DNA of 64,000 nt, taken from IMG/VR virus record IMGVR_UViG_3300037264_001603, positions 13,321-77,320 of that record; one strand, given 5' to 3'. The translations under genes were made by a program, and so were the position numbers. The stretch comes from a virus. Position 1 is the stretch's first letter. The number at the start of each line of letters is the position of its first letter. Positions 25,678 to 64,000 of this stretch are shown here, piece after piece. A model generated the notes under the pieces. That model had not been told where the DNA came from and did no database searches. It worked only from the letters and a program-made list of their open reading frames with translations.

Positions 25678-26846
25678 TGTCCGTTTCGTATTGGCAGGAC
25701 ACTGGTGGCCCCAGAAAACGGGCTTACTCCCATGTAGTGATTATTGGGGCCGGTTTAGCTGGTCTATCTACCGCCTACTGGTTGCACAAGTTAGACCCTA
25801 CGCTAAGCATAGCCATTGTAGACAAGGGCACCGTTGGGTACGGAGCATCAGGGCGCAATGCAGGTTTCATTACCTGCGGTTCTACAGAACACTTCTCCCG
25901 TATGGCATCTGCGTATGGGGAGAGCAAGGCAGAAGAGATTTGGAAGTTTACCGAATACAACCACCGCTTGATTGTCGAAACCTTTGGGCTAGAGAGATTG
26001 CAGTCGGAATGCGAATACCGAAATTTGGGAAGTTGGACTCTGGCGGCTACGGAACACGAGATCCAGGTAATCGGTGAGACTGTAAAGCATCTTCAAGGCA
26101 AGGGTGTGAATGTTCAATGGTACGACAAAAAGATCGTAGATAACTGGCTGCATTGTGAAGGGTTTCACGGCGGTGCCAAATACGCAGACGACGGAGAAAT
26201 TCATCCGGTAAAGTATCTGAACCTACTGCAGCAAGAATCTGGCGCAACGCTTTACACCAACCAGGAAGTCTTTGGTTTCGAAAGCGACGGGGATGCCGTA
26301 CTTGTAAAAACCAATCAATTGGATCTCCGTGCCGAGGCTGTGGTCCTTTGTACTAATGCTTGGAGTGGGCAACTTTCCTCCTGGTTCCAAGACAAGATAG
26401 CACCTACACGCGGGCAGATTATCGTAACTGAGCCTGTCGCGCCGTTTCTAGAGCCTGCCTATTGCAGCTTTGTTCTAGACTACTTCCGACAACTCGTTGA
26501 TGGAAGAGTTTTGATTGGCGGCTTTCGCAATGCTGACATTGAACGCGAAGTAGGTTTCTCGGACGAAATCAATCCTACCATCGACGAGAAGTTGGAAGGA
26601 TTTTTGCACGATCATTTTCCTCGACTTCGTAATGCTCGCATCGACTATCGATGGAGCGGAGTCATGGGGTTCTCTGCAGATGGTTATCCCATGGTCGGGG
26701 CCTTGAACGAAGACCCGCGGATCTTCTACAATGTGGGGTTTACCGCACACGGATTAGGGTTTACTTTTGCAACCGGGGAGCTGACAGCCAAGCTTATTCT
26801 TGAAGGACAAGATCCCGGAATTTTCAGTGGGAGAAGGTTCTCATGA
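25677..26846 (+). CDS. FAD-dependent oxidoreductase (DAO/DadA/PuuB family)
   Basis: IIGAGLAG, GASGRNAG, RGQI, WSGVMGFSADGYPMVG, GFTAHG. Confidence 0.9.
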   Translation: MSVSYWQDTGGPRKRAYSHVVIIGAGLAGLSTAYWLHKLDPTLSIAIVDKGTVGYGASGRNAGFITCGSTEHFSRMASAYGESKAEEIWKFTEYNHRLIVETFGLERLQSECEYRNLGSWTLAATEHEIQVIGETVKHLQGKGVNVQWYDKKIVDNWLHCEGFHGGAKYADDGEIHPVKYLNLLQQESGATLYTNQEVFGFESDGDAVLVKTNQLDLRAEAVVLCTNAWSGQLSSWFQDKIAPTRGQIIVTEPVAPFLEPAYCSFVLDYFRQLVDGRVLIGGFRNADIEREVGFSDEINPTIDEKLEGFLHDHFPRLRNARIDYRWSGVMGFSADGYPMVGALNEDPRIFYNVGFTAHGLGFTFATGELTAKLILEGQDPGIFSGRRFS

Positions 26847-36136: not shown

Positions 36137-37969
36137 TTGCAGAGTCTGCTGGAAGACTTAGACTTTCTTAACCAATCAGATGAACTCGTAGAGTTCTATC
36201 GACAATATCCTGAAATCGCAGCCGAAGACCTTCTAAGAGTCAAACTTAGTTCGATTCAAAAGGTAGTCTTGAGGTCCATGTGGTTTCGGGACTATGTTAT
36301 GGCCATCATGTGTCGAGGCGCTGGTAAGACTTTCTTACTGGCTGTCTTTTCGTGTTTGAAGGCCATGCTCTACCCAGGACATCGCGTCGGACTTCTAGCC
36401 CCTACCTTTCGTCAGAGCAAGTACATCTTTGACGAATGTGATAAGCTCTATCATCGCTCCCCCGTCCTGCAAGCGGCCTGCGAGCGTAAACCCACCTCGG
36501 CCTCGGACAACTGCTACCTCCGCTTCAAAGCCGTAGGCACCAAGAACCCCTCCGTCATTCAAGCCATCCCCCTCGGCGACGGTACCAAGATCAGAGGTTC
36601 GCGTTTCTTCACCATCCTCTGCGACGAGTTTCCTCACATTCCAGACGAGATCTTCAACATGGTTATCCGTCCAATGGCGGCTACTCTTGCCGACCCGATG
36701 GAGAATGTAGAGAAGGTTTCTCGCCAGAAAGAGCTGTTGGAACGAGGTTTGATTACCCAAGCAGACATTGATGCTGACACCGCCACCAACCAAATCATCA
36801 TTACGTCATCTGGTTACTTTACCTTTAACCACATGTACAAGTTGTATTGCGCTTACAAAGAGGAAATGAGGACGGGGAATGGTAAGTATGCCGTTTTTCG
36901 TGTGCCTTACTGGCTTTTACCAGACGGATTTTTGGATAAGAAGGCAATTGAAGCTGCCAAACGAGAAATGTCTAGCCTTGAGTTTAGGATGGAGTATGAA
37001 GCAGCCTTCATTCCTGACACAGATGCGTTCTATAAGGCTTCCCTATTAGAAGCATGTTCGCGTACAGGGTTCTCTACACGGGTTGCGGGCGAGCATGGAA
37101 AGACTTATTGTTTAGGTATAGACCCAGCCAGAAGTGAAGACTCCTTCGCTATCGCTATCGCAGAACTTGGCGTCCCAGCTAAAATCGTCCATGCCCTAGA
37201 ACTTCAGAAGCAGCCCTTCCCTAGAATGGCGGAGCTGATTGAAGATCTATGCGATGCATTCAACGTTCAACACATTTACATGGATGCTGGCGGTGGTGGA
37301 TTAGCCATCAAAGACATTCTTGCAGAAAACAATCGCGGCCATCGAGCAGGCCCAATTTTGGATCCCGAGGATGAGGCCCATCAGGTCAAATCCGGAAGAC
37401 ACATCATAAAGATGTGCAACTTCGGAGTAGATTTCATCTCGGAGTCCAACTTTGCGGCACTAAGACTGCTTGAGAACCGCGATTTGCTTTTTCCGAGTGT
37501 GCCTGTTGGAGATACTCCCACCCCCGCTGAAGAAGAGGGTTGGGATAAGATCCAGGAAATGAAGCGCCAGATGCAGATGATCTCGCTTTCGGAGACTCCC
37601 ACTGGTAAGTATCATTTCGATGTACCCAAAGGCGAAGGACACGGGAAGCAGAAGAAGGATTTGTATACATCCTTCATGCTGGCTGCCCGTTGTGTATATG
37701 ACCATTTGTGGGCACATGAACTTGCGGAGAGTGTTCTCTTCCACGGGGGCGTACTTAGGCCCCGGGAAGATCGAGCTTCTCGTCCCGTCATCAACTCTGA
37801 TGGCGTTCCTGTCGATGATGCTATTCCCCAGGTGATTAGGGATAAACTGGAAATGGCACAAGATCCTGTCGGCTTCAAACAGCGTTTGATGCAAAGGGCA
37901 TTCAATAAGCGTACCTTGTTGACTAGTCCCTACGCCGTCTTGAAACCGGTTCCCAAGAAGAAGAAATAG
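36137..37969 (+). CDS. terL: terminase large subunit
   Basis: Walker A CRGAGKT, Walker B ILCDE, ITSSG coupling motif, nuclease LGIDPA..D, KKDLY. Confidence 0.92.
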   Translation: MQSLLEDLDFLNQSDELVEFYRQYPEIAAEDLLRVKLSSIQKVVLRSMWFRDYVMAIMCRGAGKTFLLAVFSCLKAMLYPGHRVGLLAPTFRQSKYIFDECDKLYHRSPVLQAACERKPTSASDNCYLRFKAVGTKNPSVIQAIPLGDGTKIRGSRFFTILCDEFPHIPDEIFNMVIRPMAATLADPMENVEKVSRQKELLERGLITQADIDADTATNQIIITSSGYFTFNHMYKLYCAYKEEMRTGNGKYAVFRVPYWLLPDGFLDKKAIEAAKREMSSLEFRMEYEAAFIPDTDAFYKASLLEACSRTGFSTRVAGEHGKTYCLGIDPARSEDSFAIAIAELGVPAKIVHALELQKQPFPRMAELIEDLCDAFNVQHIYMDAGGGGLAIKDILAENNRGHRAGPILDPEDEAHQVKSGRHIIKMCNFGVDFISESNFAALRLLENRDLLFPSVPVGDTPTPAEEEGWDKIQEMKRQMQMISLSETPTGKYHFDVPKGEGHGKQKKDLYTSFMLAARCVYDHLWAHELAESVLFHGGVLRPREDRASRPVINSDGVPVDDAIPQVIRDKLEMAQDPVGFKQRLMQRAFNKRTLLTSPYAVLKPVPKKKK

Positions 37970-37979
37970 GAGATCTTAG

Positions 37980-39839
37980 ATGGCCGACGAAGTAAAGGAC
38001 AGGTTGAACCAGGACCTCAAGAACTCTAAAGTTCTCTCCCATGAGGAAGTTAGGCCCGGTGTTCATGCGATGGAAATTGATGTAGGCCCTAAAGGCAAGC
38101 CTGCCGCAGAGCTAGCTTATCTTGATCCTCGTCGCGGCGATACCAACCCAATGAAGTTCCACGAGGGTGGTCGAGTTATTACCCGCGATTATGTTCGACG
38201 CGTAGACCTGGATCTTTTGAGTGGTAGGCCAGAGGTTACTCGGGCGCAACCACAACAGATTTACCAGCGCGCTATCGATTTCTACAAGGCCAAGGGCCCC
38301 TATGGTACTTGGATTGACACCCTTTCTAACTTTGCATCCAAGGGTTTCAAGAATGACATCGACGACGAAGACATCAAGCTCTTCTATGACACCTGGACTG
38401 AAGAGATCGGTTTCCAGGAGACGGTAGAGAAGATCTTCTTTGATTTCTTTCGCGTGGGAATGGTTCGTACCTTCAAGTTGGTGGGTAAGTTTGACCCCAA
38501 GCTGAAGCCAGAAAATTTTGATTCAGTAGTAGCTCGCCGCAGCCAAGCTAATCTTTCCGAGAGTTCTGAGGACATGAAGAAGCTGATTGCGTATCGAGAT
38601 ATTGCAGCAGCTAAGAAGATTTGGTCCAAGTCCTTTGTCCCCCTGCAGTACACCATCCTCAATCCGGTGCTGATTGAGAGTCGTGGGTCCCTATTGTTCG
38701 ATCAGACTGAAACTTACCTGAAGCCCGAAGCCTTCAAGGAACTATCTGAAGTACTAAAGAATCCTTCCAAAGCCAGCCCGGAACAACGTAAGTTCATTTC
38801 CGCCCTGCCCAAGGAACTCAAGGACGCTATTCGTAAGAACCAACCTGTTCTTCTTCCCGCCGAGTTGGTAGGCAAGTGCGACTATCGACGCCAGGACTAT
38901 GAACGCTATGCGATGCCTAAAGCGGCTAGAATGTTCGATGACATGTTCTACAAGGATAAGCTCAAGGAAGCAGACTATTCCACTTTGGATGGTATCACCA
39001 ATTACATCCTCAAGGTTACTGTGGGTAATGACGAGCATCCCGTAACGACCCAAGCCGAACTGGATTCTATCGCTCGACTATTTGATACTTCCAGCAAGAG
39101 CTTCGATATCGTCTACAACCACACTCTGGAGATCGAGAAGATTACCTTCCCCGAGATTAGCCAGATTCTGGGTGTGTCCAAGTTCGAGCAGGTAAACGAC
39201 GATCTGAGCCAGGCGATTGGAGTTACCCGGGCCCTGTTAGATGGGAACACTACCGGTAATGCTGAAGGTATCAAGGCTGCTCTCAAGGGATTTTCTGAGG
39301 AAGTAAACTACGCTAGACGTCAAATTCGGCGTTGGATCAATAACGAGTACGAAGAAGTTGCTCTGGCTATGGGCTTTGATCGTTATCCAATTGTACGTTT
39401 CGACGAGAACACCCTCAAGGACGAGATCATGATGATGAGCGTCATCCAGGGTATGATCGACCGACGCATCCTCTCCTACGAGACGGGTATCGAGAAGCTA
39501 GGCTTCGACTTCTCCAACGAGTTGGCCAACTTCAAGCAAGAGAAGCCGCTGGTTCAGGACGGTATTCTGGGCATCCTTGGTTCGCCGTACAACATGAAGG
39601 CGATGCCGGCGACCGGCCCGGTTCCGGACAAGGATACTACTGTCGACGGACAGCCTACCACGGTTACCAAGAAGGATCTTACCGACTTCCAGAACAACAT
39701 CCAGAAGATGGTTGAGGAAAACATTCAGAAGGTCCAGCGTACCCCTGTGGGTACTCCGAGCGAGGGCCGCCCCCGAAAGGGACGCGGCAAGCCCCGCCAG
39801 AAGTCCACCACCCCGAACATTAAACCAACAAAACCCTAA
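37980..39839 (+). CDS. portal protein
   Basis: Follows terL; 619 aa; KVTVG clip region; basic C-terminal GRP tail. Confidence 0.8.
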   Translation: MADEVKDRLNQDLKNSKVLSHEEVRPGVHAMEIDVGPKGKPAAELAYLDPRRGDTNPMKFHEGGRVITRDYVRRVDLDLLSGRPEVTRAQPQQIYQRAIDFYKAKGPYGTWIDTLSNFASKGFKNDIDDEDIKLFYDTWTEEIGFQETVEKIFFDFFRVGMVRTFKLVGKFDPKLKPENFDSVVARRSQANLSESSEDMKKLIAYRDIAAAKKIWSKSFVPLQYTILNPVLIESRGSLLFDQTETYLKPEAFKELSEVLKNPSKASPEQRKFISALPKELKDAIRKNQPVLLPAELVGKCDYRRQDYERYAMPKAARMFDDMFYKDKLKEADYSTLDGITNYILKVTVGNDEHPVTTQAELDSIARLFDTSSKSFDIVYNHTLEIEKITFPEISQILGVSKFEQVNDDLSQAIGVTRALLDGNTTGNAEGIKAALKGFSEEVNYARRQIRRWINNEYEEVALAMGFDRYPIVRFDENTLKDEIMMMSVIQGMIDRRILSYETGIEKLGFDFSNELANFKQEKPLVQDGILGILGSPYNMKAMPATGPVPDKDTTVDGQPTTVTKKDLTDFQNNIQKMVEENIQKVQRTPVGTPSEGRPRKGRGKPRQKSTTPNIKPTKP

Positions 39840-39875: not shown

Positions 39876-42164
39876 ATGACTACAAAAGACGTAGGCAAGA
39901 ACGCCGCAAAGAGCCTACTCGAAGAAGTTCGAGAGCTTGCTCTAGTTGTAGGCGAAGATTGTCCAGAAGGGCATCGCAAAGATCCTGGCAGCGGAAGATG
40001 CTTGCCAATGGGCGGACAAGACCACACACGATTCACGCGAAGCGTCAATAATGATGACGGCCCACAGTGGCGCGGAGAGGTCGATAAGACCAATACCACC
40101 TTTGCTTCCCAGAAAGAAGTGGCCCTTGACGCAGATGATATGGACGAACCACAAAGTTGTGCTGCCGGCACGACTTTTTCTTTTGTGCAGAGAAAATGCG
40201 TTTCCCTAGAGGAAGCCGAAGCGGAAGATAACGGAGACCTTGCGTTCGTAGAGGAAGAGGTAGCGGTGCAGCCTGAAGGCCGTCGCGATACTCCTAATCA
40301 CGCATGCCCGGCCAACCAGTTCTTCGATTTCAAGCGCCGCGAGTGCATCCCTCTAAACAAGGATACTGTATTGGCATCTGAGGATGTGGACGATGAGTTC
40401 AAGAAGGTGGTAGCTACTTACTTGTCGGGACGACTAGGAGTAACCTCCCCTGATCCTATTGATGGCCACAAGCATTTGGTTACAGTAGACACCGAAGGGA
40501 GTGGTAAGTCTTCCGTTTCTTCTAGCTATCATGGGGCGGAGTCTTACTATCATTCCCATGATGTAGAAGGTTATCTAGTTCAGGATTACAAGAAAGGCGA
40601 CTACCTCTCTCAGCACTTTGGACACGTTATTCCCAAGGAAATGTGGGAGCACGAGGACCACAGTTCAGACGCGGTTCCGGGCACGGCTGTGCCAGTTGCC
40701 GCCGAAGAAGCCAAGGAACTGCGCTCCAAGCAGCGAAACGCTCTTCCGGACAGCTCCTTTGGAGTTCCCGGTAAGAGGAAGTTCCCGCTAAACGACTGCG
40801 GGCATGTGCGCAATGCCATGGCTCGTTTCAATCAGGCCAAGGGCCTGACTTCCGGCGAGAAGGCGACTCTCCGCCGAAAGATCCTATCCCGGGCCAACGC
40901 CTGTGGAATCAAAGTCACCAGCTTCGGTAAGGCAAATACTGCAGAGGAGTTTGCCGCCGTCGTACAGGAGCTAATAGCAATGGAAACTCCAACCGAGACC
41001 CCTGTAGAGACTACAGAAACCGCTGAACGAATGAAGACATATGAGGCCGCAGCCCCGTACGCGGGACCTTGTCCTCCCGGAATGGTGTGGGATAAGATGG
41101 CCAAGAAGTGCTCCAAGGTTAGAGGTTTTGTAGAGGAACTGGCCAACCATTCTGAAATCGTTAGCAAGCAGCCAGAAGGCCGCCGAGACCCCGTTGGTTT
41201 CCAGTGCCCCGCTGGCAGCTTCTTTGACTTTACGGATCGCAAGTGTGTTCCTCTTGATCCTTCCAAGAAGCCTGGTACTACAACTACTAAGGCCAATGAG
41301 GAAGAGGATGCCGCAAAGAACAACCTCTCCCCGGGTCCCGCAGGTCAGCCTGCTCGTCTTCCCCAGGATTGCCCAGCCGGTACTATTTGGGATGGCGATC
41401 TACGAACTTGCAAGCCTTTAGACAGCAGCAAGAAGACCAAGTCCGCTGAGGAAGAGGCTGCATTGCCGGACTTCCTGAAAAAGATGATGGAGAAGAAAAA
41501 GAACAAGAAGGCCAAGTCTGAAGAGGAAGAGTCCCAGAGTACTTCTAACGGCCCCGGTAATAAGGGTGGCCCCGGTTGCCCTGAAGGCCAGTTCATGAAT
41601 CCTGTTACTAAGAAGTGCATGCCTCGCAAGGGTGCCTTCAAGGGGAAGAGTGAGACTGAGACCGCAGGACGCGAAGGCCTAACGACTGAAGTTCCGGGTA
41701 AGGTAAAGCTTCCCCAGGATTGCCCAGATGGTACCATTTGGGATGGCAACCGCCGCACCTGCACCCCACTAGATCCTAGCGACAAGAACCGCCCTAGCGG
41801 TAGTTCTGGTCCGATGAATCCCAAGAGTGTGGCTTCTCTATCCACCGCACAGTTGATTCAGGCGCTGGATGAGATTCTCAAGGAGCAGGGTGCCAAGGAG
41901 AAGAGTAGGGTTGTAGCCAAGTCTCTTCCCAACGCCGCGTTTCCTCCCTCCCTCGTCAGCGCTGCTCACCGCGCTTTGATGCATCACAATCCAGACGTTA
42001 CAGATCCCTATGATAACGCATCGGTTGATGTGGCCCGCCTGCGCAATGCTCTTTACCGCTCAGGCAAGGTAGAAGGTTTCTCGGATAAGGCTGTTGAGGA
42101 TGGAATTGAACATCTTCTCTTCCACGCCCGCGAGATCGTAGAGGCCCGAACAAAAAAAGACTAA
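39876..42164 (+). CDS. Cys-repeat head-associated protein (C-x12-C repeats, DUF6582-like segment); -1 frameshift extension to 42613
   Basis: 8 C-x12-C (CPxGxxF/WD-like) repeats; LPDSSFGVPGKRKFPL..GHVRNAMARFNQ. Confidence 0.7.
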   Translation: MTTKDVGKNAAKSLLEEVRELALVVGEDCPEGHRKDPGSGRCLPMGGQDHTRFTRSVNNDDGPQWRGEVDKTNTTFASQKEVALDADDMDEPQSCAAGTTFSFVQRKCVSLEEAEAEDNGDLAFVEEEVAVQPEGRRDTPNHACPANQFFDFKRRECIPLNKDTVLASEDVDDEFKKVVATYLSGRLGVTSPDPIDGHKHLVTVDTEGSGKSSVSSSYHGAESYYHSHDVEGYLVQDYKKGDYLSQHFGHVIPKEMWEHEDHSSDAVPGTAVPVAAEEAKELRSKQRNALPDSSFGVPGKRKFPLNDCGHVRNAMARFNQAKGLTSGEKATLRRKILSRANACGIKVTSFGKANTAEEFAAVVQELIAMETPTETPVETTETAERMKTYEAAAPYAGPCPPGMVWDKMAKKCSKVRGFVEELANHSEIVSKQPEGRRDPVGFQCPAGSFFDFTDRKCVPLDPSKKPGTTTTKANEEEDAAKNNLSPGPAGQPARLPQDCPAGTIWDGDLRTCKPLDSSKKTKSAEEEAALPDFLKKMMEKKKNKKAKSEEEESQSTSNGPGNKGGPGCPEGQFMNPVTKKCMPRKGAFKGKSETETAGREGLTTEVPGKVKLPQDCPDGTIWDGNRRTCTPLDPSDKNRPSGSSGPMNPKSVASLSTAQLIQALDEILKEQGAKEKSRVVAKSLPNAAFPPSLVSAAHRALMHHNPDVTDPYDNASVDVARLRNALYRSGKVEGFSDKAVEDGIEHLLFHAREIVEARTKKD

Positions 42165-46602: not shown

Positions 46603-47670
46603 ATGGACAAGCAAAAGCTTGCTGAACTTTTTAAGGCAACTGCTGCATTTGACACTCCTGAGGGTGTCGAAGCATACAAGGCCTTCGCACAGGCACTAAC
46701 CGTGCCCATTCTCCAGGAAATTCGAGACGCATCCATTATGCGACAGCTCTTCGCTGTTGAGCGACTCGCTCCTGGTGCTCAGGCCGTCTATCCAGTTGCT
46801 GACGACTTCGAGGTACCGGTGTTCGTTCTACCTGGCCTCGGATACATCGCACAGAACTTCGTCGAAGGTGTTGGTGAGGAAGTATACGTTCCTACCTTCT
46901 CCATCTCTGCATCCGCAGACTGGAAGGTAACCTACGCCCGAGATTCCCGCATTGACATTCCGGAGAGAGCAGCCCGCAATACTGCTCGTGCAATTGCAGA
47001 CTTCGAGGAAGAGTCCGGTTGGCGCGTAATCGTGCCCGGCGGTACTACTAACTTCTCGGGTCAGGGTCTTCTCGGCCCACGCAATGCTCCGATTTATCAG
47101 GTTCCTGCCGGTGCAACCGGTGAGAAGTTCCTTTCCAAGGAATTGATCAACCTGATGATGGTCGGTATGAAGCGAGTTCGCCGATCCCTAACTGATCTCT
47201 ACATCTCCCCTGAGGACGCCGCTGACATTCGTGAGTGGACTGATACCCAGGTCGATCCTATCACCCGCCGAGAGATTTTCCAGGCTGCTGGTATGGGTAC
47301 GGTTTGGAACGTCAATCTCCACGAGGTCTTCCAACTCGGTGCCACTGGTCGATTCAACATCAATCAGAACGGTGCTTCGTTTGGTATCTTCCAGGTTGAT
47401 GGCGCTGGCGATTTCAACGACTATTCCCCAACCAACATTAACACTGTTGACGCGAATGGTAACGTTACCACCGCTGGTGAGACTCAGGTTTGGGGTTTCG
47501 ATCTCTCTGTTAATGACTCTCTCGTCATGCCTATTCGCAAGGAGTACGAGGCCCACGACGATCCGACTCTTCTACGACAGCAGAAGCAAGGTTTCTTCGG
47601 CTGGGAGGAAGTTGGTTTCGCTCTACTCGATTCTCGAATGGTATCTCTTGGTGTCATCGACCGATCGTAA
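46603..47670 (+). CDS. major capsid protein (HK97-fold, inferred)
   Basis: 355 aa; strong codon bias; position; RQLFAVE.L, VYVPTF, C-terminal GFFGWEEVGF; followed by a terminator. Confidence 0.85.
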   Translation: MDKQKLAELFKATAAFDTPEGVEAYKAFAQALTVPILQEIRDASIMRQLFAVERLAPGAQAVYPVADDFEVPVFVLPGLGYIAQNFVEGVGEEVYVPTFSISASADWKVTYARDSRIDIPERAARNTARAIADFEEESGWRVIVPGGTTNFSGQGLLGPRNAPIYQVPAGATGEKFLSKELINLMMVGMKRVRRSLTDLYISPEDAADIREWTDTQVDPITRREIFQAAGMGTVWNVNLHEVFQLGATGRFNINQNGASFGIFQVDGAGDFNDYSPTNINTVDANGNVTTAGETQVWGFDLSVNDSLVMPIRKEYEAHDDPTLLRQQKQGFFGWEEVGFALLDSRMVSLGVIDRS

Positions 47671-52350: not shown

Positions 52351-54243
52351 ATGGCACGACGTAATCGAATCATTTACCCAAGCAATGCAGTTTGGGCCAA
52401 CGGTAACGTTCTCTACCGTGTGCAGACGTTTGGTTCTACCACAACGTTCAACACCGAGGACGTGTTCGAGCTTGGTCAGCTCAACATCATCGACGTAGTT
52501 GATGACTCCCCGACTGTAGCCGTGACCATTGAGACCAATGAATTTGGCTCGCTCTCCAACCTCTATGCGCTTGCGAACCTTGAACAGGACAACGTCCTTG
52601 TTCACGACGCAACCAGCGTAAGCGGACACCTTACTGTAGTAAGTGGTCTGGGGGATGCGGCAGTCAACATTGCGTACTATCACGGTGTCGCCCTTACTGA
52701 CTTTGGTCTATCCGCAGTTTGCGGTAACTCTTCGGTCGAGATCTGGGCCCCTATCCAGGATGAATGCTCCATTGGTACTGACAATGATGTCATTGAACAG
52801 ACCATGTTCCTGCCTCGCGTATTCGTCAACTCTGTTGAGTGGGCGTATTCTGCAGGTGCGAACGCTACCGAGAATTACGGTGGTGAAACGGATGCTAAGT
52901 TCTGGTTCGTAAACGACGGTAGGTTTGTATCGAGTGAAGAATTTGTCTACACCAGCGCAGCCGCAGGTACCGATCCTGATTCTAATAATGGTACTACCGG
53001 AGGAACCGGCTTCAAGATTAACACGGCCGTTACTACGGTATTCCTTGGTCTTGACCAAGGTGCAGCAACCCCAGAGCTAATTTCTACTCGCTCCACGGGT
53101 CAGCTTGCTTTCTTGCGCTTCGACAACTTCGGCAATCCAGCAGTTCGTTACTACAATGCTTCTGCTGGTGCAACTACGGAAATTCCAGTTCAGGCTGGTA
53201 CCGTAGCCGTTGCAGGCGCTTATGTTTACAACAGTGCAAACAACGCACTCATTCAACCCACCGATTTGACCACCAACACTGATCTTCTAGGTGAAGCAAA
53301 GGCTACTGGCGACATTCTCATGGTGATTTACGCAGCGAATGCATTTGCCAATTCCTTCGCAGGTCTAGTCGTAGGTACCCAAGCCGTTCGCGGTGGCGGT
53401 ACTGCCCCAACTTCTGTAATGGCAACTCGGCGCGACGCTGAGTACTTTGCCCCGATTGAAGTTGATACGGCCCACAAGCCAGAGGATCTTGGTGCTGTCC
53501 GACAGGGTCAGATTGAGATCTATCTAATTGACAAGGATGTTCTTGATTCAACCTTTGATTTGGATGATCAGCTAGCTCTACGCTTGACTTCTGTGACAAT
53601 TGCCGCAGATCTCACCCGTGAACCGCTGTTCGAACTCTCGCATCTACGACCGTATGACCGATCGCTCACTTTCCCAATTCCGTTCACTGTAACCGTTGAG
53701 TCTACGGCGAACGACCTCGTTGAGTACGCAACTTTGGCGTCCAAGCGACAAGGTGTTGTCACTGACGGCACCACCGATGAAATCTCGATTTACGATTTCA
53801 TGACTGCCAATACGCGCCTTGACCTTGTTGTTCAGGTTTACCAGCAGACTGATGAGGAAGCAGGTGGAACTGGTTCTAACCGACGCGTAGTTACTCGCGA
53901 AATGGTTGGTGATGAGTACTTCCAGAGGGGCAATCGCTCCGTCTACTACGACGGTGTGCTTGGCTCGGACCCGGATTTCCCGGCGACGAACTTTGGTTCT
54001 ACAATCCCAGCTGTTCCAACGAAGTCCAACACGCATCGAGAGCGCCCGCTTAAGACGATCGTTGCTAAGGATCTGCGAATCACCGACGAGGCCTACAACC
54101 TCTCTATGGGTGAGAACGCAACTCAGACCTTCGGCTTCCGAGGATCTAACAACCTCTTCGCCGTTCTCGGCGAAATTGATGTAGCAGATATGGTTGCTAG
54201 CCCCGGTCTCCAGGTCAATCCTTCCGCAAGGCGATTGTTCTAA
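52351..54243 (+). CDS. major tail (tube) protein
   Basis: 630 aa; high codon bias; RVQ...EDVFELG and REPLFEL tube-domain motifs; upstream of the chaperone and TMP genes. Confidence 0.75.
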   Translation: MARRNRIIYPSNAVWANGNVLYRVQTFGSTTTFNTEDVFELGQLNIIDVVDDSPTVAVTIETNEFGSLSNLYALANLEQDNVLVHDATSVSGHLTVVSGLGDAAVNIAYYHGVALTDFGLSAVCGNSSVEIWAPIQDECSIGTDNDVIEQTMFLPRVFVNSVEWAYSAGANATENYGGETDAKFWFVNDGRFVSSEEFVYTSAAAGTDPDSNNGTTGGTGFKINTAVTTVFLGLDQGAATPELISTRSTGQLAFLRFDNFGNPAVRYYNASAGATTEIPVQAGTVAVAGAYVYNSANNALIQPTDLTTNTDLLGEAKATGDILMVIYAANAFANSFAGLVVGTQAVRGGGTAPTSVMATRRDAEYFAPIEVDTAHKPEDLGAVRQGQIEIYLIDKDVLDSTFDLDDQLALRLTSVTIAADLTREPLFELSHLRPYDRSLTFPIPFTVTVESTANDLVEYATLASKRQGVVTDGTTDEISIYDFMTANTRLDLVVQVYQQTDEEAGGTGSNRRVVTREMVGDEYFQRGNRSVYYDGVLGSDPDFPATNFGSTIPAVPTKSNTHRERPLKTIVAKDLRITDEAYNLSMGENATQTFGFRGSNNLFAVLGEIDVADMVASPGLQVNPSARRLF

Positions 54244-56543: not shown

Positions 56544-59500
56544 GTGGTAGAAGAGAACTTCAAAATTGGTATAGAGCTAGAAGTTGACCAAAAAAGTCTA
56601 GCAGATATAACCAAACAAGTTGAACAGGCCGTAAAAGCTGGCTATCAAGGGGCTATCGGTCGGGCCGCCGCAAGCGGTCCGGCTGCTCCTCCTGCCGTCG
56701 CGGGAGGAACAGCTACAGCTAGAAGTATTCGGGAGGCGACCAGGGTAACCTCCGGAGATTTTACTGAGGCCGTGACGAAGCTCGCGAGGGAGAACCACGT
56801 AGTAGCGTCGCGATTTGACGACGCCGCAGCCGGTGTAGTTCAAGCATTAAGCAAACTTACGAAGGCTATTGAAAGCCGTGCAAGCGCCCAAACCGCTAGC
56901 GTGGCTAAAGCTGCAGCTGATGCTACCAGTAAGATTGTAGAGCAGCAGGTAGGGCCTTCTAACAAGAATCTAGCTAGAGATATTCAAAGAGGACGCCGCG
57001 AGGCAGGCCGCCAGGAAGAGGGCCTGTCTCAGCGGCGCTCTGATTTGAAGACCGGAACATCAAGGGATAGACCTAATGCCGGCGCATCTGCTCAGAGAGG
57101 AGTGGAAGCTAGGACCGACCCCCCAAAGGGACGGGCCATTCACCCCCTCGAACGACACGCAGAGGCGCAGGCTAAAGCTGTTGCTATCAGCCTAGATAGG
57201 CTCGGAAAGACCATTACTAGTTTGGGTAAGCTGGGTGAAATTCCCGGTCTACTCAAAAAGATTGGCCTACCTACTGGCGCGGATGTAAAAGTAGGTGAGG
57301 GTGCCTCTGTTCAAATCAAGACCCTTTCTGGTGAAGCAAAGACGGTTACCAGCTCTCTCCAAATTGTAGGTAGTAAGCTTACTCAGTTTAGTGATATTGT
57401 CACTAGGAGAGTAAACGATCTTCTGGCCGCTCCAGAATTTACTAGTCGTCTACAGAAAGCGGAACTCGCCGGTCGACGCGACCCAGAGCGTGCCATCGCT
57501 ATGCTCCGTAAGGAGCTTAAGGGTGTGCTGAATCTACCCATAGCCAAACTGGGTGGCGCGCAGGCGTATGAGAAGGCCGGGGAAGCTGTCCTAAACATTG
57601 ACTTCTCTGGTAATCCAGAACTTCAGGAGCGCTTAGTCCAACTAAAGGACGAAGCTGCCCAAATCTCTCTTTTGAATCGTGAACTTTGGGAAATGAACGA
57701 AGTTCTTGCCGAGCTACGAAAGAGGGGCGGGGAAGTCATTGGTTCGGTTGGCTTAAGTGAAGAGTCTGCGGCTAAGGCTAAGATCATCAAGGGAGAAGGT
57801 GGCGTCCCCATGGCCGCCGAGCTGCCCGTGCAGATTCGAGATTTGGCCGGTATGATTATGGGCGGTAAGGGTGCCATGCGTTGGGCTCGTTCTTTCCAGC
57901 CCCAGCAGGGACGTCAGATGGTGGAAGGTGAACGTCCTCGCATTATGGGTAAGGGTGAAGCTCAGGCCTATGAGACGGGTATGTACCGCGAGAATATGAC
58001 TCGCTCAATCAAGACGGCGTATGTTGACGCTCGTCAAGTACCCGAAGCGCACGAAGACATGATTTTGTTGGATAAGAAAGTCGCTGATAAGATGTCCACA
58101 TGGGAGCCTCAGATTACTGATGCCCTGAAGACTTTGGCCCACGATCTCCAAAAAGGACAGCAGCTAATTCATGGCCAGGTCTTGGGATACGATGTAGAGG
58201 GACAAGAGATCAAGTTCGATCTCAAGGGTGTACAAGCCGAAGTAGAGGGAGTTGAGGAAGTTGTAGAGAACGGTATAGAGGGCGTGCGCATCCGATTCAA
58301 GGAACTCTATAAGATGGCCACGGGTAGTAAGATGACTACCACGGCTGGTTTCAAGGGTGTCGTTCGCGTTGTCGAGGATTTGACTAAGTTCGGTGCTCCT
58401 AAGGGAGCCGAAGCAGCTATCACTGGTTTTGGAGCTGCGAAGCGTGGTGTTCTTTCTGACCCCATGAAGATGATGGCTTCTGAGATTTCCAAAATGGCAG
58501 GAGAAGGCGTTTCTCCACAAGAAGTAGCAGATAAGATTGAACAGGGTATGCGAGAAGGCGGACAAGACCTTGTTCAGGCAGTAGAGGCCGCGGCCCAGAT
58601 GGTTGGTGTTAAGGGCTTCAAGGCGGAAACTGCAGGTATGATAGGCGATATGCCGTGGGAGAGATTGAAGGAACCCAGGGTTCCCGGCCCGGCGGCAATT
58701 GGTACGAAGTATTACGATCTGCCGGCCATGAAAGCCCTTGGTATGCGGGCGGATACGTCCAAGATGATCGAGGATATGCAGGCCCGCATGTCCGAAGTAA
58801 CTGCTAAGAATTCCGAGTTCGTGGCTACTCTTAAGGCTTTAGCCGGAGAAACGGATGTAGCGGCTGAAAATCTACGCACTATGCTGCCGGAGGAGTTCAA
58901 GAGACTTCCTCCGGGAGTGGGCGCTATAGAGACATTTGCTGACACCATCTTGGATCCTAGATTCAAGGAGGCGTTAGCTATTCGTTTGCCCTCCCGCAGC
59001 GGCGAGGAGCGACTCCTCCGCATGCCCGGCATTGGTGGTGGCCTGGGTGCCCGCGGCTCATTTGAGACCTCTCTCGGAGCCAAAGGTCCGGATCCCCTCA
59101 CAAGAATGTTTGATAAGATGATTCAGACGGCACGGGATATTAGAGTGGCGGAAGGTAAGGCAAGCCCGGATCTTGCAGCTGATAGCGAGACAGCGAGCAA
59201 TGCCGCTCACGCTACGGCTAGGGCTATAAAAGATCAAGTTGATGCCTTGGAGAAACTCAACCTCAAGAGTGAGGCTGGCGCTGCTGCTGCAGACAAGTTT
59301 GTTAATGGACTATTGCCACTTATTGAAGCTCTAAATACTAAGCTAACCGATCCTATTCAGTTCTTTAAGATGAAAGGCGGCGAGCGCGTAGGAGAGACGC
59401 CTGTCACCACGGCACGTGCCGGTTCGGATGCCGCTGGATTTATCCGTGGGGCACCTACCGCCGAACGACGATTGTATGGGTTACAGGACGTATTGACGGG

Positions 59501-62500
59501 TAGAACAGCACGTAAGTCTCAGAAGTCAGAGAATGTTCCCACTATGGGCGAGCTGTTCAAGAATGCTCCATTGCTACAAAAGGTTATGGAACAACTAGGA
59601 GTTACTCTACAAGCAGACGCCGCGGCGGCCGATAAATTGTATTCCCGCTTAGAGAAACTGGAAGATGGTCTGGTTAGTGCGTACAGCATGTTGACTTTTG
59701 CTACCGAGGGTGGGGGTAAGCCTAGTTCCGCGATGAAGACCCCATTCTCAGGACAAGTAGGTACTGGTTTGGCTATGACCCACCGGGAATTGACGGCGAT
59801 TCAAATGCGAACCGATGTCGATGAAGAGTTAGGGGCAGTTCATGATAGATTACAACAATTAGCTGCTGCCGGACAAGATGTCAACGCCGCAATGGCTGCT
59901 TTGGATAGATTGGCTAACTTACAAGGAAATGTAGCCAAGATTCCACGCGACGCAGTATTTATCAATAAGACGGATTGGGCCAATCTTGTAAAGGCCACTA
60001 TGAAGGAAAAGGGCATTGATCAGGGAGAGGCTGAACGAAGGTTGTCTCGTCCCGGACTTTTGCATCGTTATCCTACGACAGGCGGCGCTAGCTTCTTAGC
60101 TACTCGCCCGCAGGTTGATCCCACTGGTACCATTCCGGAAGGTAAGATCGGCGTGGCTGGACCAATGGCGGCGTCTCCGGAAGATTTGGCAACCATGTTG
60201 AAGCCTTTGCGCGAGCACGAGCAGGAACTATACCGTGTAATAGAGGCCGAACGTGGTCAGGGCGCGGCCTCTGATGCTGCCCGTGTTCAATTGGAGTCCC
60301 TAGTTCCTGTACTCCAAAGGCTACAGCAGCTTTACTTGGCTGTAGGCCTAAATTTGGACTTTGACGGGGATAAGATCAGCTGGCTAGCTAACATGTCTAA
60401 AGAGGCAGGTTCCGGCATAGAAACTTTCACTCAGAAGATTGATAAGGGCGGGGTTAGCTTCCAGCAAATGATGCTGAATATTATGGGTAAGGTCAAGGGC
60501 GGGGCAACTGGAAATCTCAAGGAATACTCCGAGCTGTTCGGGCAGGTAGCCAAGGGTAGATCTGGTGACCTCCGCCGTTCCGTTCTCATGCCAGAAACGG
60601 GAGCCACTGCTCAGTTCGAGACCCAGGCGCACATTGGTGGTAAGAAGTCGGTGGGTCTTCTTACCGATGCATTCAACAAGATCATGGTATCCATTTCGGT
60701 AGGTACCAAGGAAGTAGGTGATTCCTTCGCTACCGGTATGGACTACATCATGATGAACATCAATAAGTCCCTTGCTCAAAAGAGCGGCGGCGCAGGTATC
60801 GCTGGACCTAAGGAGTTTTTGGACGACCTCAAGGCTGGAAGTCTAGAGAAGATCTCCCAGGGCATGCGCTCCGGAAAGGGCGGCCTCTATGAGGAAATGG
60901 GTGAGTATAACAAGCAGATGCGCAACCAGATGCGCGAATCCTTTACTAGCACGTTCTTCCGAAAGGGAGCAGGCGGGCTACAAGATGTTGCTAAGGCCGA
61001 AGGAATAGCTGGAGAGCTACCTAAGGACATCACTTTTGAGAACTTCCGTTCTGTTGTTGATCAGATGGTAGATTCTTTGGACCTAGAGGCACAAATTACT
61101 CGTATGTTCCAAATGATGAAGAAGAACATGGTAACAGCATTGGCCAAGCAGGGCATGGGGATGCCGGAAATAGAAACTGCTATGGGAAAGATGTTTACTC
61201 CAGGAAAGGGAGGCAAGATCCCAGGACTCGATGTGGATCAGCTATTGGGCCAATTGGCTCCAGAATACCTCATGACCAGGCGAAAGCAAGTCAAGGGTCT
61301 GCGAGAAGAAGCATCCCCGATGGCGAAGGCGCAAGAGGCTTTGAAGATTCTGGCCAGAAACGTAGCAGAACAAGTAGCAACCACTTCTGACGAATTCAAC
61401 CTGGAAGAAACGGTAGACCCGCGCGCCCAGGCCAGAGAGATTTCTCAGAAGCTATTGGCGTGGTATCAGAGCATCAAAGACAGTTTCTCTGTGGTAATGC
61501 GACAGGAAGATTTTGGCAAACTAACCGGAGGTAAGTACCCGGAGAAGGTTGTTGGTAGGATTGGAGGCATGCACAAGCCTGAGGCTGGTGGCCCCGGCGA
61601 AATCTTCATGAGCTTTCAGAACAGGATTAAGCCATTCATGGAAGCGGTAAAGAAACTGAAAGAGATCGGGGAAGGAGCACCTGCTACTGCCGAGGGAGTT
61701 CAGAAACTTGCCAAAGACATTAAGGCTTTCGGTGCAACTCTAAGCCACGAGAAGATTCACCAGGCCAATAAGATTTGGACAGACGCCATTGACGGACTTG
61801 TCCGCAGTCTGCAATCTAAGCGAACCTTCATTGGTAAGGAATCTGACAAGATTCTAGCCGCCCTGCTGCCGAAAGCTAACATTGCGGCCTTGTCTAAAGA
61901 TGCGGATAGGTGGAAGAAGGTATCCGAAGAGGTCGGAGACCCTGAACTTCCTGAGTTAAAAGGTGCCGCCAAGAAACTCTTCACTCAATTGGCCGAAGAG
62001 CTTATGGCATACCAGGCCGACCCTGCCGCATTCAAGAAGATGATGGAAGGCGCAGACGTATCGGAAAGAGCCATCCGAAAGCTCTCCGAAGCATTGAACA
62101 CCCTGGTAAAAGATGCTTCGCGGGCGACCGGGGCAACAGTAGATAAGGACATCCTGGGCGCGTCCCGCACTGCCGGTGAGGCCTCCTCCGAAGTCATGAG
62201 TCTATCCCAAAGCATTGGGCAGCTGTGCGCCACTACTAGCGACGCAACGCAAGATATGAAGAAGCTAGGCGACGCCATGGGGGCCAGCTTCGCAGGTATT
62301 TTCCAGTCCATGAATGAGAAGTTGACTCAGCAAGAAGCTGCGGTTATGCAGGGAACTGGAATGCTGGGATTGCCCTCAGTCGCTCGAAAGGGAGGCAAGC
62401 TAGAGTTTGGCGAGGACATTGGTAAGTTGGGGGTAGAGACGCAACTACCAATCCTTACAGATAAGATCAAGAGTATTATGGAAGCAGCCCGATCTGGCTT

Positions 62501-64000
62501 CCCCGATGTCGGAACGCTAGCCACCGCTGAACGTGAACTCAATAATGCAGCTAACGATCTCCGCGCGGGGGTTTCTCAACTAGAGAAGGATAGGGAGAGT
62601 GGCATAGGACGAGGTACTGGGCACAAGGTGTTCCAGAAGGTTTGGCGAGAATTCCACCAGGCTGTTTCTTTGAGCATGATTAACAAGGCACGAGGCCTTC
62701 AACGAGAAATTTCGGAGATGAAGTCCACTGGTGCGGACGTCAAAGATCCCGGTAAATTGAGGGATCTGCTCAACGAACTAAACCAAACCGTCATTCAGCA
62801 TGAGGAATATTTGGCTAGGTCTCTCAAGTCCCGCGGCCGCGGTCGAGGCACTATGACTAGCCACATCGCCACTGCCGGCGGTGAACTGGTTCCTGCAGCG
62901 GTTGAGTCTGGAATTAGACCATCTCAGGAAATGCTGGACGCACAACTATCTTCCATTGCTGGATACGGCAAGGAAGGCAAGACATTCATGACCCAAATGG
63001 GTGGAGCTATCGAATTTGCTGTTTCGGAAATGAAGCAGGGCAAAGACATTACTGAGGCTTGGGTGGGCCTATTCTCCGCTCTCAAAGAGCAGCCGGAGTT
63101 GTTCCACACCAACTTGGTAAAGGTTGCTGAAATGCTTTCCCGTATCGCTACCCACTTGGGGACCTTTGGTGGCAAGTTTGCTGATACATCCACCAGCATG
63201 ATGGAAATGGTGAAGCACGCCAAGGCGCTCGGCCGCGCTACCGAAGGTAAGATCATCAAGAACGCAGGAGATTTGAATGAGGCCCTTACAGGGGCACCAA
63301 AGCAGGCTAAGATGGCGGCCGCCGTTGGCGGTGGTACCAGTTTGGCGGAATCCGTCAAGACCCAGTACGCAGAGGCAGAGGCTGCCGCTAAGAGTTATCA
63401 ACAACGCCTACAATCCCTGGTAAACGACCAAGAAGCATTTGCCAAGGCTGGTAGACCCAAGGTATTTGCACCAATCACTAAGGACATTATCGACCCAAGC
63501 ACGGGCAAGGTTCTGCAGCAAGTTAGAATCGAAGCTAAGAGATCCGGAGATACTGTTACTACCAGCATGAAGAATGCTACCGGTGCGGCTAATCTCTTTG
63601 GTAATCAGATGCGCAGCGCTCTCCGACGTGTTGTTCAGTGGGGATTTGCATCAGGTGCCATTTACGGATTGATCCGAGGCTTCCGTGCTCTATCCGACAC
63701 CGTTGTTACCGTACAGAATAAGATGGCCGAACTTCAGAAGGTTATGGATACTTCCATTACTGACTTTGGGCGTTTGCAGACTACAGCGGTGAACATGGCC
63801 AAGAACTTCGGTGTGGCTATCGAAGATGTGTTGGATGGTATGGTGGTATATGGTCAGCAAGGTTTGAAGATGAATCAGATTACTGAGAGAACCAAGGCTA
63901 CCCTGTTGGCTGTTAATACCACTACTCTAGATACTACCGAAGCGACGGAAGCCCTCACCGCGGCGCATAAGGTATTTTCTGATGAGATTGGTACCAGTAT
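56544..64000 (+). CDS. giant tape-measure polyprotein with two-barrel RNA polymerase motifs and zincin domain (3' partial, at least 2485 aa)
   Basis: GGAGG then GTG at 56544; no stop to the window end; HED (58050), GSKMTTTAGFKGVV (58323), HRYP (60063), NLDFDGD (60351), HEKIH (61746), TP901-like TMP core from ~63600. Confidence 0.85.
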   Translation, partial: MVEENFKIGIELEVDQKSLADITKQVEQAVKAGYQGAIGRAAASGPAAPPAVAGGTATARSIREATRVTSGDFTEAVTKLARENHVVASRFDDAAAGVVQALSKLTKAIESRASAQTASVAKAAADATSKIVEQQVGPSNKNLARDIQRGRREAGRQEEGLSQRRSDLKTGTSRDRPNAGASAQRGVEARTDPPKGRAIHPLERHAEAQAKAVAISLDRLGKTITSLGKLGEIPGLLKKIGLPTGADVKVGEGASVQIKTLSGEAKTVTSSLQIVGSKLTQFSDIVTRRVNDLLAAPEFTSRLQKAELAGRRDPERAIAMLRKELKGVLNLPIAKLGGAQAYEKAGEAVLNIDFSGNPELQERLVQLKDEAAQISLLNRELWEMNEVLAELRKRGGEVIGSVGLSEESAAKAKIIKGEGGVPMAAELPVQIRDLAGMIMGGKGAMRWARSFQPQQGRQMVEGERPRIMGKGEAQAYETGMYRENMTRSIKTAYVDARQVPEAHEDMILLDKKVADKMSTWEPQITDALKTLAHDLQKGQQLIHGQVLGYDVEGQEIKFDLKGVQAEVEGVEEVVENGIEGVRIRFKELYKMATGSKMTTTAGFKGVVRVVEDLTKFGAPKGAEAAITGFGAAKRGVLSDPMKMMASEISKMAGEGVSPQEVADKIEQGMREGGQDLVQAVEAAAQMVGVKGFKAETAGMIGDMPWERLKEPRVPGPAAIGTKYYDLPAMKALGMRADTSKMIEDMQARMSEVTAKNSEFVATLKALAGETDVAAENLRTMLPEEFKRLPPGVGAIETFADTILDPRFKEALAIRLPSRSGEERLLRMPGIGGGLGARGSFETSLGAKGPDPLTRMFDKMIQTARDIRVAEGKASPDLAADSETASNAAHATARAIKDQVDALEKLNLKSEAGAAAADKFVNGLLPLIEALNTKLTDPIQFFKMKGGERVGETPVTTARAGSDAAGFIRGAPTAERRLYGLQDVLTGRTARKSQKSENVPTMGELFKNAPLLQKVMEQLGVTLQADAAAADKLYSRLEKLEDGLVSAYSMLTFATEGGGKPSSAMKTPFSGQVGTGLAMTHRELTAIQMRTDVDEELGAVHDRLQQLAAAGQDVNAAMAALDRLANLQGNVAKIPRDAVFINKTDWANLVKATMKEKGIDQGEAERRLSRPGLLHRYPTTGGASFLATRPQVDPTGTIPEGKIGVAGPMAASPEDLATMLKPLREHEQELYRVIEAERGQGAASDAARVQLESLVPVLQRLQQLYLAVGLNLDFDGDKISWLANMSKEAGSGIETFTQKIDKGGVSFQQMMLNIMGKVKGGATGNLKEYSELFGQVAKGRSGDLRRSVLMPETGATAQFETQAHIGGKKSVGLLTDAFNKIMVSISVGTKEVGDSFATGMDYIMMNINKSLAQKSGGAGIAGPKEFLDDLKAGSLEKISQGMRSGKGGLYEEMGEYNKQMRNQMRESFTSTFFRKGAGGLQDVAKAEGIAGELPKDITFENFRSVVDQMVDSLDLEAQITRMFQMMKKNMVTALAKQGMGMPEIETAMGKMFTPGKGGKIPGLDVDQLLGQLAPEYLMTRRKQVKGLREEASPMAKAQEALKILARNVAEQVATTSDEFNLEETVDPRAQAREISQKLLAWYQSIKDSFSVVMRQEDFGKLTGGKYPEKVVGRIGGMHKPEAGGPGEIFMSFQNRIKPFMEAVKKLKEIGEGAPATAEGVQKLAKDIKAFGATLSHEKIHQANKIWTDAIDGLVRSLQSKRTFIGKESDKILAALLPKANIAALSKDADRWKKVSEEVGDPELPELKGAAKKLFTQLAEELMAYQADPAAFKKMMEGADVSERAIRKLSEALNTLVKDASRATGATVDKDILGASRTAGEASSEVMSLSQSIGQLCATTSDATQDMKKLGDAMGASFAGIFQSMNEKLTQQEAAVMQGTGMLGLPSVARKGGKLEFGEDIGKLGVETQLPILTDKIKSIMEAARSGFPDVGTLATAERELNNAANDLRAGVSQLEKDRESGIGRGTGHKVFQKVWREFHQAVSLSMINKARGLQREISEMKSTGADVKDPGKLRDLLNELNQTVIQHEEYLARSLKSRGRGRGTMTSHIATAGGELVPAAVESGIRPSQEMLDAQLSSIAGYGKEGKTFMTQMGGAIEFAVSEMKQGKDITEAWVGLFSALKEQPELFHTNLVKVAEMLSRIATHLGTFGGKFADTSTSMMEMVKHAKALGRATEGKIIKNAGDLNEALTGAPKQAKMAAAVGGGTSLAESVKTQYAEAEAAAKSYQQRLQSLVNDQEAFAKAGRPKVFAPITKDIIDPSTGKVLQQVRIEAKRSGDTVTTSMKNATGAANLFGNQMRSALRRVVQWGFASGAIYGLIRGFRALSDTVVTVQNKMAELQKVMDTSITDFGRLQTTAVNMAKNFGVAIEDVLDGMVVYGQQGLKMNQITERTKATLLAVNTTTLDTTEATEALTAAHKVFSDEIGTS

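Follow-up and report, generated by a model that had tools for sequence, protein, structure and literature searches.

A predicted single-chain, two-barrel RNA polymerase module in the N-terminal part of an uncultured jumbo phage's tail tape measure protein

The virion RNA polymerase (RNAP) of phage N4 is a giant virion protein that brings a polymerase into the cell for early transcription; it is a T7-like right-hand enzyme packaged in the head, and neither a two-barrel polymerase nor a tape measure protein. The closest functional precedent for the gene described here is gp96 of the Thermus phage P23-45, which was absent from a first-pass annotation of this DNA made from its letters alone. gp96 is a tape measure protein of 5,002 residues with an N-terminal two-barrel RNAP and a DFDGD motif at residues 779-783; its minimal active fragment comprises residues 327-1124 (Chaban et al. 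2024, Nat Commun 15:317, PMC10770324; PDB 8H2M, 8H2N). It is active in vitro, is present at full length in virions and transcribes the pre-early genes including the gene of the non-virion RNAP gp64; gp96 and gp64 were reported as each other's closest relatives (PMC10770324). The enzyme is flat and clampless with a disordered connector of 67 residues; its flat shape was proposed to permit passage through the tail channel, and it was proposed to stay tethered at the inner channel mouth (PMC10770324). The association of a tape measure protein with a polymerase was called "previously unsuspected" and such fusions were named only in P23-45, P74-26, G20c and TSP4 (PMC10770324). Here, a giant open reading frame (ORF) from an uncultured virus is compared with these systems. 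The stretch that was analysed, hereafter the window, comprises 64,000 nucleotides (positions 13,321 to 77,320 of the IMG/VR record IMGVR_UViG_3300037264_001603), and the ORF lies at 56544-63998 on the plus strand, as do all its features given below.

The ORF has a GTG start and 2,485 amino acids are present. It probably encodes the tail tape measure protein of a jumbo phage of approx. 296 kb, in which residues ∼284-1600 (57393-61343) constitute a single-chain, cell-type two-barrel DNA-dependent RNAP that would be injected for early transcription. The module was delimited with hhalign, an AlphaFold2 (AF2) model, Foldseek and VIA-align (VIA). The model covers residues 440-1600, was built on the family alignment and is numbered from the start of that segment (model residue 1).

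Six RNAP motifs had been proposed in the first-pass annotation, and all of them were found at their places in the single frame of this ORF; the interval given there began at 58020, two codons inside the first motif. This motif consists of TAYVD (residues 491-495, 58014-58028) and PEAHEDMILL (residues 500-509, 58041-58070) and is followed by GSKMTTTAGFKGVV (residues 594-607, 58323-58364), AEAAITGFGAAKR (residues 622-634, 58407-58445) and IGDMPWERLKE (residues 700-710, 58641-58673). They belong to a beta-like double-psi beta barrel (DPBB-B, residues ∼485-720, 57996-58703) that carries E504-D505, K596, K604 and R634 according to VIA, conservation and an alignment to RpoB. The beta'-like barrel (DPBB-A, residues ∼1165-1285, 60036-60398) contains LLHRYP (residues 1172-1177, 60057-60074) with R1175-x-P1177, and NLDFDGD (residues 1270-1276, 60351-60371), the Mg-binding N1270-L-D-F-D-G-D1276. 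The catalytic barrels of beta and then beta' stand on one chain, as had been claimed, and their active-site residues are intact.

The E. coli residues given there for comparison, namely E813/D814, K1065/K1073, R1106 and H1237 of beta and R425 and D460/462/464 of beta', were correct when rpoB and rpoC of strain MG1655 were read, and the K-x7-K spacing is kept by K596/K604. One residue detail did not stand: a change of His1237 to Glu had been considered lineage-specific, but position 710 varies within the family (E in ten members, K in eight, P in two, and others), so E710 is not a lineage trait. The nearby R707 is conserved in 23 of 26 members. The distance between the RxP and DFDGD motifs is large, as had been noticed, with 97 residues from R1175 to D1272 compared to 32 in RpoC, 35 in gp96 and ∼35 in the free-standing paralogues introduced below. 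The helical insert that had been postulated from this spacing is seen in the AF2 model as a family-specific helical hairpin (residues 1212-1261, 60177-60326; model helices 773-796 and 802-822) within the beta' barrel, directly before the DFDGD strand.

Direct searches did not connect the polymerase region with characterised enzymes. With phmmer against PDB sequences only chance matches to dynamin were obtained, hmmsearch with the profile of this region gave no PDB chain at E ≤ 10 with the gp96 fragments 8H2M and 8H2N in the library, and Pfam yielded nothing significant on the whole window ORF, where the PhageMin_Tail domain is cut by the contig end and stays below threshold. The link was made via a family of free-standing polymerases. 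One of its members (L006:3305-6694, 1,129 aa) reached 27.7 bits for RNA_pol_Rpb2_6 with a threshold of 23.4 bits and also matched RNA_pol_Rpb1_2, and a profile of nine free-standing members matched bacterial RpoB chains with an E-value of 6e-7. The window family matched the free-standing family in hhalign with a probability of 99.4% and an E-value of 7e-22, in an alignment that covers 354 columns in the beta-like half, followed in the same order by three more matches on a connector segment, the RYP motif, and DFDGD with 150 columns after it (E 1.6e-4). Together they span residues 446-1438 and both barrels; alignability to the free-standing RNAPs reaches back to residue 284 (E 1e-5) and includes the helix 1353-1385 and the helix-loop-helix region after it (hhalign match 2). 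The earlier view that chance is unlikely with six ordered motifs is borne out by these hits, which go far beyond chance, and a coincidence of motifs was rejected. Direct alignment of the profile to E. coli was weak and placed K596/K604/R634 on RpoB K1065/K1073/R1106 (E 0.0095) and NLDFDGD on NADFDGD in RpoC 455-476 (E 0.0045).

Relatives were found with several approaches. While a scan of IMG/VR with the single protein gave none, an alignment-based scan found eight related loci, two of them on complete genomes. A word-indexed search yielded three giant proteins from JGI that carry an annotation as TP901-type tape measure proteins, and a metagenome scan gave three further and two distant loci. 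An exhaustive profile search resulted in 53 proteins at E ≤ 1e-3, with ∼25 giant ones (3,800-5,300 aa) at the level of 50%-identity clusters, and additionally in the group of free-standing proteins of ∼1,000-1,160 aa. In five other giant metagenomic proteins of 2,236-5,013 aa (P0037, P0045, P0042, P0032 and P0053), a polymerase segment with LDFDGD is located at a long distance from the N-terminus; a part resembling a DNA polymerase exonuclease stands at the start of P0037 and P0045, and P0042 contains a DarB-like part. P0037, P0042 and P0045 were considered as tape measure fusions and rejected, because PHROGs gave no tape measure family in them, so these three look like different giant polymerase-bearing proteins.

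Conservation was determined on an alignment of 29 sequences, in which identity to the window protein ranges from 25 to 63%. E504, D505 and K596 are each invariant in 25 of 25 sequences, G602, K604, R634, R1175 and P1177 in 26 of 26, and N1270, D1272, D1274, G1275 and D1276 in 24 of 24. Given this low overall identity, the unchanged catalytic residues are a signature of selection on catalysis. It is very improbable, in consequence of the same counts, that the module is a decayed, catalytically dead relic which only contributes structure or additional length to the tape measure protein: the known catalytic RNAP residues are unchanged in 24-26 of 26 members, and the whole module was modelled with high confidence as an RNAP core. 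A relic would fit the very low direct sequence similarity to characterised RNAPs (nothing with profiles against PDB sequences) and the Ser of the window protein at the position of the usual His in a K-H-G-G loop. This loop is part of a conserved I-N-x-S-L-x-x-K-[H/S]-G-G motif within the helix-loop-helix 1393-1431, and the His is present in 15 of 23 relatives.

The AF2 model has a mean predicted local distance difference test score (pLDDT) of 84.1 and a predicted template modelling score (pTM) of 0.74. With Foldseek, at least 391 PDB chains matched at E ≤ 1e-3, and the 50 listed were all second-largest subunits of RNAPs (best E 1.1e-7). VIA was run against 48,161 representative chains, and the following matches are among the best 50 rows. 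The beta-like half (model residues 1-279) was most similar to A135 of Pol I (4c2m_B) with Z 16.6, 260 aligned residues and a root mean square deviation (rmsd) of 4.3, followed by vaccinia Rpo132 (Z 15.6) and the non-virion RNAPs of AR9 (Z 15.2) and phiKZ (Z 12.5); the Rpb2-type matches to this half aligned 250-300 residues. The beta'-like half matched Rpb1 of Pol II (9mu7_A; model residues 329-1158, Z 8.9, 376 aligned) and residues 20-526 of tobacco RpoC1 (8w9z_C; model residues 329-869, Z 8.4). In the database of viral models BFVD, the RNAP model aligned over ∼1,100-1,300 columns to segments of a 'Minor tail protein [Siphoviridae sp. ctnpt50]', an uncharacterised protein of Microcystis phage MaMV-DC and A0A7R7G2L5_2; comparable hidden polymerases may be present in phage records that are already deposited.

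Between the barrels lies a connector of ∼440 residues (∼721-1164, 58704-60035), which was confidently modelled with helices and small sheets. Part of it is clamp-like: an archaeal RNAP clamp construct (3qqc_A) was matched by model residues 312-1161 with Z 8.8, rmsd 2.8 and 140 aligned residues. With a moderate Z, this is a lead rather than proof that the connector partly corresponds to the N-terminal (clamp) region of beta'/Rpb1. In the beta-like barrel, a beta-rich insert (residues ∼520-590) separates the ED and K motifs in the model and might be flap-like or similar to an SBHM (sandwich-barrel hybrid motif). C-terminal to the beta'-like barrel, model and conservation indicate a helix of 33 residues (1353-1385, model 914-946) with the invariant K1367, which would be the bridge helix, and the helix-loop-helix 1393-1431, whose model helices 954-972 and 983-992 flank a low-confidence loop and which is a candidate equivalent of the trigger loop (both within 60600-60836). 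Residues 440-1600 contain no cysteine and therefore lack the zinc-binding elements of cellular RNAPs.

As one rigid body, the whole model was superimposed on RDR2 (Z 9.7, 373 aligned), QDE-1 (Z 8.8, 334 aligned), gp62 of P74 (Z 8.0) and gp96 (Z 6.8 and 6.4). Since these single-body fits are on two-barrel polymerases, both barrels are mutually placed as in real enzymes, and this is indirect evidence that the motif residues would meet at one active site. The overlay with the RNA-dependent polymerases RDR2 and QDE-1 also brings up another task for an active enzyme, which could pull in the genome by transcription, prime replication or carry out RNA-templated synthesis instead of making mainly early mRNA. 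In T7, the genome is known to enter with the help of transcription, and such a process would go well with a polymerase that is tethered at the pore of entry. We regard a different main task as improbable: the beta-like half shows a far greater similarity to DNA-dependent multisubunit RNAPs (Z 12.5-16.6), pre-early mRNAs are what the one fusion of this type characterised so far produces, and genome pulling and early transcription are mutually compatible anyway.

The assignment as a tape measure protein is based on the C-terminal part present and on the gene position. Residues 2331-2482 match PHROG 4211 'tail length tape measure protein' with E 9e-34 and PHROG 14917 with E 2e-22, which places the start of a tape measure core of the TP901/PhageMin_Tail type at 63534-63998, where it is cut by the contig end. 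At the aligned position, full-length homologues contain PF10145 (PhageMin_Tail) with 82.8-84.2 bits and a cut-off of 33.2 bits. The open-frame list has the ORF running off the window end without reaching a stop, and the window ends with the viral contig of 77,320 bp, so the end of the ORF is set by the assembly; full-length relatives have ∼3,800-5,300 aa. The start agrees with the family consensus MVEExFK. The neighbouring genes are all on the same strand, with the large terminase (36137-37969), the portal protein (37980-39839) and an HK97-type major capsid protein (46603-47670) upstream, and the ORF is therefore in the expected position of the tail tape measure gene.

The contig is metagenomic, and one homologous locus (L003) has an in-frame TAA at 8607-8609 within the polymerase part, shortly before the RxP motif. 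A sequencing error, a pseudogene or a genuine split might each account for this stop. On such grounds the fusion itself might be suspected to be an artefact, either an assembly chimera or a stop or frameshift missed between a polymerase and a tape measure gene, but there is next to no room for this: more than 20 independent metagenomic proteins (50%-identity clusters; JGI, ENA and Logan) have an uninterrupted order of polymerase, HExxH motif and tape measure core, and two members, whose open frames of 4,562 and 4,651 aa are free of stops, are located on complete genomes. An assembly chimera was rejected for these reasons.

The two complete relatives have genomes of 295,848 bp with direct terminal repeats and of 297,725 bp. 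Each encodes the fused protein (4,651 and 4,562 aa) and a free-standing polymerase (1,120 and 1,057 aa), and according to hhalign the fused copy is most closely related to the free-standing one and vice versa. In one of them, the gene of the free-standing polymerase belongs to a tight operon with no obvious intergenic region upstream. The window contig has a CheckV completeness of 26%, which fits a genome of ∼296 kb.

Between polymerase and tape measure core, a HExxH motif (H1735, E1736 and H1739) and E1819 form a candidate zinc metallopeptidase site (61746-62000), as suggested by the invariance of the motif. These four residues are unchanged in 22 of 22 aligned family members, and HExxH follows DFDGD at a distance of ∼450-480 residues in all full-length members for which the two motifs could be located. 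The HExxH region has no Pfam match. The model of residues 1601-2330 is confident and mostly helical, and fold searches with it gave only generic helical bundles (best VIA Z 9.4), nothing in Foldseek at E ≤ 1e-3 and no zincin.

Such a site allows for an alternative in which the polymerase, once synthesised or while the particle is assembled, is cut from the tape measure part, for instance by HExxH...E, and acts as an ordinary non-virion or head-packaged enzyme; the fusion would then only ensure that both parts are co-expressed or that the polymerase reaches the particle under assembly, and the enzyme would not be expelled via the tail. Tape measure proteins are proteolytically processed in other phages, which gives this alternative a precedent. 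It also draws on the position of the invariant HExxH and Glu in all aligned members and on the clamp-like region and the large connector, with which a folded passage through the tail tube is hard to picture. We consider it unlikely, albeit less so than the other alternatives to an injected early polymerase discussed above: P23-45 virions hold the polymerase as part of full-length gp96, the zincin fold is unconfirmed for the HExxH region in the fold searches, and the complete relatives already have a free-standing paralogue for a non-virion role.

For the injected polymerase that we favour, the following mechanism is proposed. The active site would be formed between the barrels by E504/D505, K596, K604 and R634 from the beta-like and R1175-x-P1177 and the Mg-binding D1272/D1274/D1276 from the beta'-like side, and it would be completed by the bridge-helix-like helix and the trigger-loop-like element. 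In lambda, T5 and SPP1, the tape measure protein is oriented with the C-terminus at the tip of the tail and the N-terminus facing the head. Accordingly oriented, the C-terminal part would lie in the tail tube and set its length, and the polymerase end would be placed on the head side beside the leading DNA end, because the N-terminus faces the head in these phages. Upon infection, the tape measure protein would be expelled and form or line a channel through the envelope. The polymerase would follow, either tethered at the inner channel mouth or freed by the HExxH module, and transcribe the first DNA that enters. This DNA would probably include the gene of the free-standing polymerase, and the paralogue might then take over the later genes. 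Of all this, the analysis establishes homology, fold, the conserved catalytic residues, the fusion and the pairing with a paralogue, while catalytic activity, presence in the virion, injection, the timing of transcription and any cleavage are inferred.

Several observations weigh against this interpretation. The main difficulty is one of size: unlike the flat and clampless gp96, the modelled protein has a clamp-like region and the 440-residue connector, and a folded, clamp-bearing module of ∼1,300 residues appears too bulky for the tail tube, so that either an unfolded passage or another location would be needed. No gene of a free-standing polymerase was found on the window's 77-kb contig, a fragment of ∼26%, from which the C-terminal half of the protein is missing as well. 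A search of the window for a repeated promoter-like motif gave only short, two-copy, chance-like repeats. Furthermore, the Ser in the K-H-G-G loop departs from most relatives, all family proteins that were looked up are metagenomic, and in tblastn neither polymerase, fused or free-standing, matched any of 50,697 GenBank phage genomes.

Residues 1-283 (56544-57392) comprise a conserved head and then a stretch rich in Ala/Gly and Arg; this region has no Pfam or PHROG match and lies outside the part that can be aligned to the free-standing polymerases. Upstream of the tape measure gene, a protein of 630 aa (52351-54243, +) has no Pfam or PHROG match. Its neighbours in a protein atlas include a cluster with Phage_tube_2 in 21% of the members (score 0.91), and as a lead only, it could be a large tail tube protein. 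A head-module protein of 762 aa (39876-42164, +) contains repeated Cys units like those of chitin-binding peritrophin-A (CBM_14; E 1e-16) and a DUF6582 segment, and its gene has a direct repeat of 79 nt at 41358 and 41709. Auxiliary genes, all on the plus strand, encode an M16 insulinase-type peptidase (7667-8893), an enzyme of the IMP dehydrogenase/GMP reductase family (8893-9882, E 4e-96), a patatin-like phospholipase (13837-14769) and a DAO-type FAD oxidoreductase (25677-26846). No tRNA genes were found within the 64-kb window.

Two observations bear on the domain of the host. One homologue of the fused polymerase with 41% identity is located on a 49.6-kb contig (L017, WJJK01000045.1) that was binned as 'Candidatus Altiarchaeales archaeon'; either this viral contig was assigned to the wrong bin, or the host may be an archaeon. 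In the window, a protein of 476 aa (3096-4526, +) matches Pfam Volactin (PF25216) with E 2e-64 over the full profile and MreB weakly; volactin-type proteins belong to the actin family and are named after a haloarchaeal protein. The host may thus be archaeal. The terminase has just 29% identity to its best cultured relatives, which are Bacillus siphophages.

In comparison with known polymerases, the module is in several respects like the multisubunit RNAPs; these comprise the split phage enzymes encoded by AR9 and phiKZ (PDB 7S00 and 7OGP), which are among the best structural matches of the beta-like half. The motifs ED, K-x7-K, R, RxP and NxDFDGD occur in the same order and with nearly the same spacing, and the free-standing paralogue reaches Pfam Rpb2_6 and Rpb1_2. 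Unlike these enzymes, it consists of one chain instead of two to five, is fused to a tail protein and is devoid of cysteines and zinc-binding elements between residues 440 and 1600. Only about the C-terminal third of beta is matched, and beta' is matched over most of its length with only ∼380 residues aligned.

With the group of YonO, crAss gp66 and QDE-1, the protein shares both barrels on one polypeptide, and the whole model overlays QDE-1 and the plant RDR2. crAss gp66 is delivered with the virion as part of a very large protein (PMC10770324), and the polymerase described here is likewise embedded in one; gp66 was not among the 50 best VIA rows. The first-pass annotation had spoken of a minimal RNAP of YonO/crAss style, and this label was rejected as the best one. 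The beta-like half scores far higher on second-largest subunits of multisubunit RNAPs (Z 12.5-16.6) than on QDE-1, RDR2, P74 gp62 and gp96 (6.4-9.7), and on the sequence side the matches of the free-standing paralogue to Pfam Rpb2_6 and RpoB disfavour it as well. In addition, an insert between the ED and K motifs, at the flap site of cellular beta, is absent from YonO and from RNA-dependent RNA polymerases (Iyer and Aravind), unlike the beta-rich, possibly SBHM-like insert predicted here. Nor is the word 'minimal' supported for a module of residues ∼284-1600 with a ∼440-residue connector and a clamp-like match. In substance, namely a single-chain beta/beta' polymerase of a new family, the annotation was right, and the family has no representative among cultured phages. 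The compact, cysteine-free beta/beta'-type core of ∼1,300 residues is an addition to the list of minimal RNAPs. As in N4, a giant protein contains an RNAP and would deliver it; unlike the N4 enzyme, it is of the two-barrel type and fused to a tape measure protein.

The differences to gp96 are considerable. Alignment of the family with residues 1-1600 of gp96 by hhalign gave E 0.058 over 22 columns around DFDGD, and the tblastn search of GenBank phages, P23-45 included, gave no match and thus none to the phage of gp96. The structural likeness is modest (Z 6.4-6.8) compared to up to 16.6 for multisubunit beta subunits. The modelled ∼440-residue connector and its clamp match, with a moderate Z, point away from a clampless shape, whereas gp96 has its 67-residue disordered connector. 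The 50-residue helical hairpin in the beta' barrel is not shared with gp96, RpoC or the free-standing paralogues, and gp96 has no HExxH, unlike the invariant HExxH...E found here. The polymerase starts at residue ∼284 with DFDGD at 1272, compared to 327 and 779 in gp96, and the phage genome has ∼296 kb instead of 84 kb. By the tests run on sequences and model, the family does not appear to be a member of the gp96 family. The two may still have a very deep common origin, because the free-standing family is similar both to gp96 in the beta' barrel (E 4e-6) and to RpoB in the beta barrel (E 3e-6). It is conceivable, though rather doubtful, that the locus represents a second, independently evolved fusion of RNAP and tape measure protein, which arose from a clamp-keeping beta/beta'-type polymerase and not from the gp96/gp64 lineage. 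If this is true, phages tethered their first polymerase to the DNA-entry channel more than once, and the passage of a bulky polymerase was solved differently, e.g. by unfolding or by self-cleavage at HExxH. The clamp-like region, the hairpin in the catalytic barrel, the HExxH module and the cellular-like beta half provide handles on packing, expulsion and tethering at the entry pore.

The overall layout, on the other hand, is that of gp96. In both cases, a giant tape measure protein carries a single-chain two-barrel RNAP with DFDGD at its N-terminal end, the gene belongs to the tail section within the morphogenesis module, and the genome, here that of the complete relatives, also encodes a free-standing paralogous RNAP, the two copies being closest to each other. 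The strategy has so far been proven only in one unrelated Thermus phage. As its layout is repeated by a sequence-unrelated family in ∼296-kb jumbo phages from many environmental assemblies, and the fused enzyme is again paired with a paralogue, delivery of a polymerase by the tail ruler looks like a general strategy for host-independent early transcription and not like the curiosity of one genus.

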